Positions 6,001 to 9,000 of a stretch of DNA of 25,739 bases are shown one piece after another. A program made the position numbers. Each line of letters opens with the position of its first letter. The first letter of the stretch is position 1. The stretch is from a virus (taxonomy: Duplodnaviria; Heunggongvirae; Uroviricota; Caudoviricetes): the IMG/VR virus record IMGVR_UViG_2526164664_000020; one strand, 5' to 3'.

Positions 6001-9000
6001 GACACTCACCTTGTTCCTGATATTCATTAGCATCATCCTGATTATTTAACTTCTCTATTCAGGGAAGCCCGTCTGATACAAAGCTTCTATTCCTCGTTAA
6101 ATATTCTCCATTCTGGCGCCAAGCCCTATCTATAGCTGATTGAAAATAACTCTAAAAATGTAATAATATCAAATAGTTTATTCCTACAGCCGTTCATTTT
6201 GAGTAAAATATTGACGAGAATTTCACAAAAGGTAGATTTCATGCAAACGGATAAATTAGACTATCACATAAAGTTCTTATAAGGTTATCTATATGATAAA
6301 TAGCATTAATTCTTTTTTTCCAGCATTCCTCGCAGTATATCAAGTGTTATGCGTAACAGTAGCTTCACTGCCTCACAGCACAAAAGCACACCTAACACGG
6401 TAAAAACCAGCTCACCTCTTTCTCCCAGCAACAGTCCTGCCAGTGCAACAACTATTTTTAAGGTAAAAAATTCTTATACAGAATCAGGACTTCAACGTTC
6501 CACATCTTATACTCAGTCAAGTATAGAAAAAAACGCTTTACATCGGCCTCTACCTGATGTGGCCAAACGCCTAGTGCAGCATCTTGCAGAGCATGGCATT
6601 CAACCAGCCCGGAATATGGCTGAACATATTCCTCCGGCACCTAACTGGCCTGCACCACCACCGCCAGTACAAAATGAACAATCAAGACCTCTGCCTGATG
6701 TGGCTCAGCGTCTGATGCAGCATCTTGCAGAGCATGGCATTCAACCAGCCCGGAATATGGCTGAACATATTCCTCCGGCACCTAACTGGCCTGCGCCAAC
6801 GCCGCCGGTACAAAATGAACAATCAAGACCTCTGCCTGATGTGGCTCAGCGTCTGGTGCAGCATCTTGCAGAGCATGGCATTCAACCAGCCCGGAATATG
6901 GCTGAACATATTCCTCCGGCACCTAACTGGCCTGCGCCAACGCCGCCAGTACAAAATGAACAATCAAGACCTCTGCCTGATGTGGCTCAGCGTCTGATGC
7001 AGCATCTTGCAGAGCATGGCATTAATACATCTAAGCGCTCGTGATTATAATATAATTACCTGTATTAGCTCTGACCTGACAGTTACCGGTTATTTATACA
7101 GGTATCTGTCAGATTACATCTAACCAACAAAAAACCGGAGCCGGACTCCGGTTTTGTGAAGCTGTCGGGTTACTTCATCCCGCCAATATTTTCCCACGTC
7201 CCGTCAGCACGCAGGATTTGCAGCGGTCTTACCACGCACTGTATCTGCTTTTTATCCGCATCCAGTATCACCACCTGCGTGATTACCCTGGCCTGCTCCG
7301 GGATAATGCCATTCTCATCGGACTCCAGAATGTCTGCCGGTCCCAGTCGCAGCTGTGCTGTAAGTAACTCCCCGTTTTCACGGTCATCATGCTTTCCGCA
7401 ACCACACAGACGCTGCATAAGTTTTTTTAGTATATTCATGTCATTCTCCTGTTCTGCCTGTATCACTGCCCACTTCATCCAGCCCCTTAACATCCTGCCA
7501 CGGCCCGTCACCAAACCTGACCTGCAAATGCCGAAACAGCCCCTGAACCTGTGTGGCATCTTTGGGGTCAAGAAAGGTCAGTCCGGTGATGAGTGCGCCA
7601 TCTGTATCCGGGAACCAGCCATTGCTGTTTGTCTCAATAATGTTTCCCGGCCCCAGACGGAACCGTATTTGTGTCTCCCCTGGGTCGCCCTTTGGTCCCT
7701 GAGGTCCGGTTGCCCCCACCGGGCCAGCCGCACCTGTTTCTCCTTTCGGTCCCTGTGGGCCAGCCGGGCCTGCCGCACCGGTATCTCCCTTTGGCCCCTG
7801 TGGACCTGCATTTCCCGTCAGACCGGTCTCTCCCCGCTCTCCCCTGTCGCCTTTCGGCCCCTGCGGACCTGCCGGACCAGCATCACCTGCCGGTCCCCGT
7901 TCGCCGGTTGCCCCGACAGGGCCGGTGTCACCGCGCTCTCCCTTATCACCCTTCGGCCCCTGAGGACCCGCGGGCCCCTGTTCCCCCTTTGGCCCGGGAG
8001 GTCCCACCACGGTGGGGATTCTGTTTACGGCTTCTTCCGCCGCTATCCTGCTTTGTTCCGCTGACTGTGCGCTTTCTGCTGACTCCCGGGCTTTTTCTGT
8101 TGCGGTCGTTGCATCCCTGGCTGCATTACCGGCTGCACTTTCTGCCGTCTTTCTTGACAATTCAGCTTCTGCTGCACTTTGTGATGACTCACTGGCTTTT
8201 TGAGCGGCCGCAGAGGCCGAGGACGAGGACGCATCCTCTGACTGCTTTGCAGAGGCTGCACTTTCTGCCGCCTGCCGGGCTGACTCCGATGCATCCCCTG
8301 CTGAAGTGTCAGCATTTGCAGCGCTCTCTTCTGCCTGACTGGCTGATATGCCGGCATTCCTCGCGGACGTCTCCGCCTCTCCGGCATTCTTCTTCGCCTC
8401 CTCAGCGTGACGCGCCGCTTCTTCCACCATCAGTTCAAAACGACGCAGTGCCTCCGGCCGGACGTCATCCTCCGACATGGCACCGAGAAAATCATTCAGC
8501 GTCCCCGGTTGAGAATCTTCATACACGGTGATGGTCCCGGCATGTGACGGCGGGAATCCTTCCACCAACAGAATGACGCTGTACTGACCGTACTCAACGT
8601 CCATGCTGTAACGACCGGCTTCATCCGGATTTTCAGAGGCCACCGTGTTCACCACCACCGTGCTGCTGGTCCGTCTGGCTTTCAGTTGAATGGTGCAGTT
8701 CTCTACCGGTTTTCCTGTGCCGTCTTTCAGTACACCTGAAATCTTTACTGCCATATTCACCCCACAAAAAAGCCCGCCTGAACAGGCGGGCTGTCATAAC
8801 ACTGTGTTACCTGGCTAATCAGAACTTATAACCGACACCCACGATGAAACCGTCAGTGCGCCAGTCGCCACTGCCGGAGCCTTCATAAGCAATATCAATG
8901 GCCACGGATTCGGTCGGGTTAAACTGCACGCCAGCCCCCCACGCCAGAGACGTGTTGCTGTGGCGACCGTCATCACTTCCGGTCAGCACATCATGCGTTT

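Follow-up and report, generated by a model that had tools for sequence, protein, structure and literature searches.

Why would a side tail fibre gene be followed, a single nucleotide past its stop codon, by a separate short gene for a second version of the fibre's own tip domain? This question is raised by a 25,739-nucleotide (nt) stretch of phage DNA (IMG/VR record IMGVR_UViG_2526164664_000020, Caudoviricetes; hereafter, the window), in a region that represents the right arm of a lambdoid prophage of the enterohaemorrhagic Escherichia coli (EHEC) type. Here, the fibre gene stf and an open reading frame (ORF) for a protein of 89 amino acids (aa) lie in tandem, and the segment 7170-7700 spans the two paralogous parts, the PfC domain of the small protein and that of Stf. 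An original prediction made from this DNA alone held that the two are paralogues, that the small gene is translationally coupled to stf, and that its product could be an alternative or spare receptor-binding tip or a chaperone derived from the tip. We are all but sure that the small ORF is a genuine, expressed and conserved, already known paralogue of the fibre tip, and we tentatively regard its product as an accessory partner of the fibre knob. The elements on which the argument turns are the following:

7441..8754, minus strand: stf, collagen-like side tail fibre of the EPclA type, 437 aa
7672..8004, minus strand: collagen (Gly-X-Y) run of Stf, residues 251-361, from a regular expression on the translation and Pfam PF01391
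7477..7668, minus strand: PfC (Phage_fiber_C) domain of Stf, residues 363-426, full-length match to PF06820
7444..7476, minus strand: C-terminal tail of Stf, eleven residues after PfC, which holds the ribosome-binding site of the small gene
7446..7450, minus strand: Shine-Dalgarno sequence AGGAG of the small gene, inside stf codons, 6 nt upstream of the ATG
7170-7439, minus strand: small gene, 89 aa plus stop (PF06820, 1e-34; phrog_576; annotated in RefSeq)
7359..7439, minus strand: 27-residue N-terminal extension of the small protein (MNILKKLMQRLCGCGKHDDRENGELLT), without a Stf counterpart in the alignment, the more variable part
7173..7358, minus strand: PfC domain of the small protein, residues 28-89, PF06820, near-invariant

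The paralogy that had been read from the sequence is borne out. In a single pairwise BLASTP comparison, residues 29-88 of the small protein align with Stf at 23/62 identities (37%) and 61% positives (E=4e-12), and both proteins cover the entire 64-position PF06820 model far above its curated cut-off of 25 bits, the small protein with 119.2 bits over residues 28-89 (model positions 1-64) and Stf with 118 bits over residues 365-428 of the 439-aa ORF. The similarity between the two proteins is therefore far beyond chance. The small protein also matches phrog_576 from end to end (positions 1-89 of 89, E=6.9e-60); PF06820 is its sole Pfam match at E<=0.1, with no match to Caudo_TAP (PF02413), and no NCBIfam model matches it.

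Stf consists of a PfN domain, a low-complexity coiled coil, 111 residues of Gly-X-Y repeats and the PfC domain (Pfam phage_tail_N, 6e-69; Collagen, 4e-18; Phage_fiber_C, 1.6e-34), an architecture that matches the one described for EPclA by Ghosh et al. 2012 (PMC3368898). Its RefSeq homolog is WP_000279061.1, 'prophage tail fiber N-terminal domain-containing protein'; in annotated relatives, stf starts at ATG 8754 (MAVKISG), which yields 437 aa, and the ORF is open back to GTG 8760 (439 aa). The PfC domain of EPclA (ECs2717) is small and beta-rich, and experiments identified it as a trimerisation domain from which the collagen triple helix nucleates (PMC3368898). The small protein belongs to the same Pfam family and is 37% identical to this domain; unlike the latter, it is not attached to collagen, carries the 27-residue N-terminal extension, in which there is a CGCG motif, and has no 11-residue C-terminal tail.

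The junction between the two genes is compact and conserved. The stf stop codon TGA occupies 7443..7441 and the ATG of the small gene 7439..7437, with a lone C at 7440 in between, and relative to stf the small gene is read in the +1 frame. Among loci sampled from IMG/VR (80 with the small protein and 80 with the Stf C-terminus), all 85 small ORFs (85/85) are preceded by a PfC-ended frame, followed by TGA, one nucleotide and ATG. The junction reads ACAGGAGAATGACATG in 63 of the 68 scored copies, and the remaining five retain GGAG (three with ACTGGAG, one with GGAGGATGAC and one at a contig edge); across 80 loci, the DNA of the eleven-residue C-terminal tail of Stf comes in no more than 4 distinct versions. 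Given the embedded Shine-Dalgarno sequence and the ATG one nucleotide past the stf TGA, the small protein is therefore a separate polypeptide that is made together with the fibre on the late transcript, by translational coupling as originally proposed.

The same loci allow an estimate of the selective pressure, with pN and pS (nonsynonymous and synonymous differences, respectively) obtained as Nei-Gojobori counts over distinct alleles. In the PfC domain of the small protein, pS is 0.12 and pN is 0.005 (pN/pS 0.044), compared with 0.16 and 0.050 (pN/pS 0.31) for the N-terminal 28 codons of the same gene and with 0.12 and 0.027 (pN/pS 0.22; 48 distinct alleles) for the PfC domain of Stf; for the whole small gene, pN/pS is 0.12. 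Thus, the small gene is subject to strong purifying selection that exceeds the selection on the fibre's own knob. In the fibre-side survey, an intact small ORF is present in 70 of the 75 evaluable Stf-PfC loci (93%), and none of these 75 loci contains a PfC-ended fibre that entirely lacks the small gene. The five disruptions comprise an A7-to-A6 slip in codons 4-6 (two loci), a truncation at residue 50, a deletion that spans the start codon and a further frameshift.

Some details of this polymorphism are worth recording. The run CTAAAAAAACTT at 7422-7428 (codons 4-6 of the small ORF) is the A7 run that loses one A (A7 to A6) in the IMG/VR loci L089 and L112, so that the small ORF goes out of frame; either a mutational hot spot or a sequencing error could account for this. 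Amino acid polymorphism in the Stf knob is concentrated at few positions in the IMG/VR loci (GN/AS, N/H, D/G, D/A, Q/R, L/F/M and R/Q), and in the small-protein domain the sole common polymorphism, A/D, affects residue 50, which lies in a loop aligned with the D/G site of Stf. In about 20 of the 85 IMG/VR copies (loci L003-L082), the stf frame is broken within a few hundred codons upstream of PfC and the small ORF is intact; the collagen repeats of stf may be frameshift-prone or poorly assembled.

Expression of the gene can be followed in phage phi24B, where gp59 is the ortholog of the small protein and gp61 is the fibre. The virion proteome given in the supplement of the 2026 phi24B cryo-electron microscopy preprint includes two peptides unique to gp59, ADGTWENIGGMK and VITQVVILDADKK, with 3 peptide-spectrum matches (PSMs) each, and gp61 accounts for 2,267 PSMs versus 6 for gp59, which is roughly 2% per residue. 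The gp59 peptides thus show that the small protein is made in lytic growth, and their scarcity relative to gp61 shows that it is present in purified virions in trace amounts at most.

The implication of the original prediction that the arrangement was new does not stand, the gene being both annotated and published. It is named 'phage tail fiber C-terminal domain-containing protein' in RefSeq (e.g. WP_001023420.1), PHROG 576 corresponds precisely to it, with a profile of 89 positions, and Mondal et al. 2016 described ORF68 of phage Sp5 as a stand-alone fibre-C-terminus domain and proposed the 'reservoir' idea (PMC5155283); therefore, both the observation and its main interpretation were already in print. 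Sp5 ORF68 (ECs1229), 933W Z1484 and phi24B gp59 are the same gene (89 aa, 92-99% identical, PF06820) and are likewise located 1 nt past a PfC-ended collagen-like fibre gene. These orthologs follow a 645-aa EPclB fibre in short-tailed Shiga toxin 2 (Stx2) phages, whereas the gene studied here follows a 437-aa EPclA fibre in a long-tailed lambdoid prophage with tccP2; the few substitutions that separate it from the ORF68-type orthologs mostly affect its first 27 residues. A PfC-ended, 645-aa EPclB fibre also precedes the 89-aa gene in VT2phi_272, a short-tailed Stx2 phage. In short, the small gene always travels with a PfC-ended fibre, be it the long-tailed 437-aa or the short-tailed 645-aa version. 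In Sp5, ORF68 is among the non-essential late genes and the nine essential genes include ORF67, which encodes the fibre: plaque formation and lysogeny on K-12 survive deletion of ORF68 and are lost upon deletion of the fibre gene (PMC5155283).

The gene is also abundant. A megablast search with the 270-nt ORF yielded 6,814 copies in 698 of 5,426 complete E. coli genomes (~13%), with a median of 11 copies per carrying genome, all at least 90% identical; the carriers are almost all prophage-rich strains of the EHEC and enteropathogenic E. coli types. By tblastn, the gene was found in 296 phage records, chiefly those of Stx-converting phages. The fibres concerned are those of phages that disseminate Shiga toxin and type III effectors, and the phi24B preprint counts the receptor and the role of the collagen-like lateral fibres among the open questions, for which a conserved, co-translated knob paralogue is an obvious candidate for study. 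Earlier work had already assigned the domain, recognised that it stands alone, found the gene non-essential and put forward the 'reservoir' idea; what the present analysis adds is the population evidence for strong purifying selection, for the obligate linkage to PfC-ended fibres and against a recombination cassette, which is very unlikely, and the residual interest lies in the role of a gene that is present at ~11 copies per EHEC genome.

With respect to structure, the N-terminal extension is predicted to form a short helix followed by disorder, with a helix at residues 3-11 in a low-confidence AlphaFold2 (AF2) model. The AF2 monomer models are poor overall, with a predicted local distance difference test (pLDDT) score of 49 for the small protein and 55 for the Stf C-terminus; they suggest all-beta PfC domains, plus the short N-terminal helix in the small protein. 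Structure prediction for the PfC domain failed likewise in the phi24B preprint, and a sequence search of the PDB with the family profile returned chance matches only (optineurin, E=0.016) and no solved structure. A lipoprotein or signal-peptide reading of the N-terminus MNILKKLMQRLCGCG was rejected upon inspection of the sequence, which has no hydrophobic core.

The PfC family is very narrow. An exhaustive HMMER search of 1.84 billion representatives produced 84 matches, nearly all of them fragments of two E. coli clades, and a word-indexed search with a widened profile recovered, among the matches listed, E. coli clusters only. One protein that passes the PF06820 cut-off, the 565-aa metagenomic protein P0240, contains four tandem PfC-like domains that are 23-31% identical to the small protein and are joined by short Gly-X-Y linkers; after them come a long collagen run and another C-terminal region. 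Therefore, PfC-type domains can stack as beads along a trimeric fibre, and, by analogy, this stacking keeps open the docking of a second knob onto the first. In P0240, the 'tail fibre C-terminus' domain is also an internal repeated bead.

What, then, does the small protein do? The small gene is an old paralogue of the terminal PfC domain of the EPclA/EPclB-type collagen-like fibres found in EHEC lambdoid and short-tailed Stx phages, translated with the fibre from the late transcript as a separate polypeptide. Its product probably folds as a beta-rich trimer like the fibre PfC, with the 27-residue N-terminal extension added, and, in the reading that we favour, probably serves the fibre knob as a dispensable accessory partner from the gene slot of tfa, likely by aiding or stabilising knob assembly or by binding the knob transiently. 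It is probably neither a virion subunit in stoichiometric amounts nor a silent spare cassette, and a frameshift extension is likewise improbable. For this statement as a whole, a real coupled paralogue that is also an accessory fibre-knob partner, we estimate a probability of roughly 0.45, and the partnership taken by itself is the leading candidate at somewhat worse than even odds.

In lambda, the slot after stf is occupied by tfa (stf-tfa), and the same holds for stfR-tfaR of Rac. The comparison with Tfa (lambda Tfa, Mu and P2 Tfa, T4 gp38) is instructive: in each case a small gene lies directly downstream of the fibre gene and is co-expressed with it, whereas the small protein has no similarity to Caudo_TAP and derives from the fibre's own tip domain; moreover, Sp5 ORF68 is not needed for fibre function in the laboratory, and the fibre trimerises alone in vitro.

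Several considerations weigh against an accessory partnership. That the small protein binds the fibre at all is something that we infer. Recombinant EPclA, its Col-PfC fragment and the isolated PfC domain each trimerise without the small protein in a laboratory strain (PMC3368898), and the Sp5 deletion mutant described above forms plaques and lysogens, so that an assembly role of the small protein is at most auxiliary under laboratory conditions. The small protein also has no similarity to the tail fibre assembly proteins of the Caudo_TAP family in Pfam, the AF2 monomer models are uninformative, and contamination by a soluble late protein would explain the trace signal in virions equally well. 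An essential chaperone role conflicts with the published EPclA trimerisation and Sp5 dispensability; of the chaperone interpretation that had been put forward, only the weak form, an auxiliary contribution, survives.

Other readings have to be set against the accessory partner. The small protein might be a virion-borne distal adhesin, that is, a homotrimeric second knob docked via the N-terminal extension onto the end of the Stf knob and serving as the true, or an additional, receptor-binding tip that is dispensable on K-12 and needed on natural hosts. T2-type gp38 and Mu Tfa, which remain on the fibre, provide an analogy. Such a role would be in line with a fold shared with the distal knob, the translational coupling to stf, the presence of small-protein peptides in purified phi24B virions, the stackable tandem domains of P0240, and the view of the phi24B preprint, which lists the lateral-fibre receptor among the open questions, that binding of BamA by the fibre tip is unlikely. 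We nevertheless regard it as unlikely because the protein is far below stoichiometric amounts in virions (6 PSMs versus 2,267 for the fibre), its domain is near-invariant (pN/pS 0.044) and the fibre knob is more variable, a pattern contrary to that usually seen in an outermost receptor-binding surface, and the gene is non-essential in Sp5. A variant in which the small PfC is a detachable second knob, either docked non-covalently on the tip and easily lost in purification or appended to a minority of chains through a low-level +1 shift at the Shine-Dalgarno-GAA-UGA-C junction, seems improbable; if true, it would mean that EHEC phage populations carry fibres with two kinds of tip from one paralogous domain pair. 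The tandem beads of P0240, an unrelated collagen fibre, show that a stack of this kind is structurally feasible. Of similarly low probability is a free soluble knob, a trimeric PfC released at lysis that would, for example, mask the fibre ligand on debris or neighbouring cells, or bind another surface. Late expression with hardly any incorporation into virions, and strong conservation combined with dispensability for plaques, would suit such a factor, and against it stands an N-terminus, MNILKKLMQRLCGCG, that reads as having neither a signal peptide nor a lipobox.

The spare or alternative tip of the original prediction is not supported. It corresponds to the reservoir suggested by Mondal et al. 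2016 (PMC5155283), a stored alternative C-terminus that recombination would move onto stf, altering receptor specificity. The P0066 cluster (95 aa; 4 sequences from 2 samples) is compatible with such an event because it joins a collagen run in frame to a small-type PfC, at a point that matches a 14-nt direct repeat (13/14 identical; 7334-7347 and 7887-7900). However, P0066 is situated at a contig edge, and the first strand of its domain is missing. Nucleotide identity between the two PfC-coding segments is only 56.5% over the aligned codons, and the longest identical run is 7 nt. Identical runs of 7 nt are too short for homologous exchange. Moreover, in 6900-9000 there are no flanking inverted repeats beyond chance ones of 16-19 nt, no direct repeat of the tip at the DNA level and nothing that resembles the template of a diversity-generating retroelement (DGR), and the annotated neighbours include no invertase, recombinase or reverse transcriptase. 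None of the 120 small-type clusters listed exceeds 131 aa, and the sole long match in the search of 1.84 billion representatives bears a Stf-type tip, so no full-length fibre with a small-type tip came to light. Finally, a silent cassette would need no conserved Shine-Dalgarno sequence and ATG, would not be kept at a pN/pS of 0.044 and would give rise to no peptides. The reservoir is thus largely refuted, and tip swapping is unlikely; we rate it somewhat below the soluble knob. The known tip-switching systems, Mu Gin and P1 Cin inversion and the DGRs, share with this locus a second tip-coding copy just downstream of the fibre gene, but the copy here is on the same strand, has 56% nucleotide identity instead of near-identity, and has neither flanking inverted repeats nor a recombinase or reverse transcriptase among its annotated neighbours (lom, J, tccP2); a DGR or invertible cassette was rejected on the same grounds.

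A programmed +1 frameshift or stop bypass at GAA-UGA-C, which would append the small protein to some fibre chains and create a tandem PfC-PfC tip, is very unlikely. The frameshift site of prfB includes a Shine-Dalgarno-like sequence and a UGA-C stop. These two elements are found here, with AGGAG directly before UGA-C; relative to stf, the small gene lies in the +1 frame, which contains no stop over the 44 codons upstream; tandem PfC-like domains exist in P0240; and the authors of the phi24B study included two hypothetical fusions in their mass spectrometry database, with a match marked 'Spike or just gp59?'. Against this, the sequence offers no slippery P-site codon, as GAA would be unable to re-pair on AAU, Mondal et al. 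found no frameshift signal (PMC5155283), no junction peptide (DMNIL, TGEND) is present in the portion of the phi24B proteome examined, where the normal C-terminal peptide of the fibre has 47 PSMs, and coupling fully accounts for the Shine-Dalgarno sequence and the ATG. That the small gene is a decaying, functionless duplicate is almost certainly wrong. In its favour are the five disrupted loci out of 75; the selection data refute it, with pN/pS of 0.044 at pS 0.12, and the 93% of loci that are intact, the 6,814 copies at >=90% identity in complete genomes and the detected peptides also stand against it. The check for an untranslated remnant, frameshifted in relatives, that the original prediction had called for therefore came out in favour of a functional gene. 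In order of decreasing probability, we place the accessory partner first, followed by the distal adhesin, the soluble knob, the reservoir and the frameshift.

Two observations complement the discussion of P0066, which is found in GCA_038404665.1: one copy of the 14-nt repeat lies in the small ORF (LGPAD codons) and the other in the collagen run of stf.

The pair is embedded in the following neighbourhood:

9487-12960, minus strand: J, 1157 aa
9449-9468, minus strand: terminator-like hairpin between J and lom
8819-9406, minus strand: lom (Pfam Ail_Lom, 5e-114)
8771-8792, minus strand: terminator-like hairpin between lom and stf
7131-7155, minus strand: terminator-like hairpin 15 nt past the stop of the small gene, at the end of the late tail operon and facing tccP2
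6349-7044, plus strand: TccP2/EspFU-type effector gene with EspF repeats, convergent with the tail operon

Given the hairpins at 8771-8792 and 9449-9468, the stf-small gene pair is bracketed by hairpins, and it presumably depends on late antitermination. The closest DNA matches are in O145:H28, O103:H2 and O157:H7 chromosomes, with 97-97.6% identity over 3.2 kb and identical gene order, and Rfam and tRNA scans of 3,000-9,600 gave no match. The hairpin at 7131-7155 is common to the TccP2-type effector gene and the tail operon, and the effector gene contains 3.4 copies of a 141-nt (47-aa) proline-rich repeat at 6547-7023. Further along, a 402-aa ORF at 4639-5847 (plus strand) has no Pfam or NCBIfam match; over its final 130 residues, it shares 84% identity with a pseudogene fragment that is annotated in RefSeq as an N-terminally truncated 'secretion protein EspV' (O145:H28, O103:H2). 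This reading frame is about 3 times the length of the pseudogene fragment and may therefore represent a fuller EspV-family effector gene. At 753-3686 (minus strand) are chromosomal genes for a DUF1456 protein, the response regulator BtsR (1.9e-126) and a histidine kinase of the 5TMR-LytS type (BtsS-like), which places the prophage/chromosome boundary between ~3,700 and ~4,600. In the nearest DNA relatives, the effector-tail module is located at other sites, adjoining tRNA-Ser/hyaA or an integrase gene.

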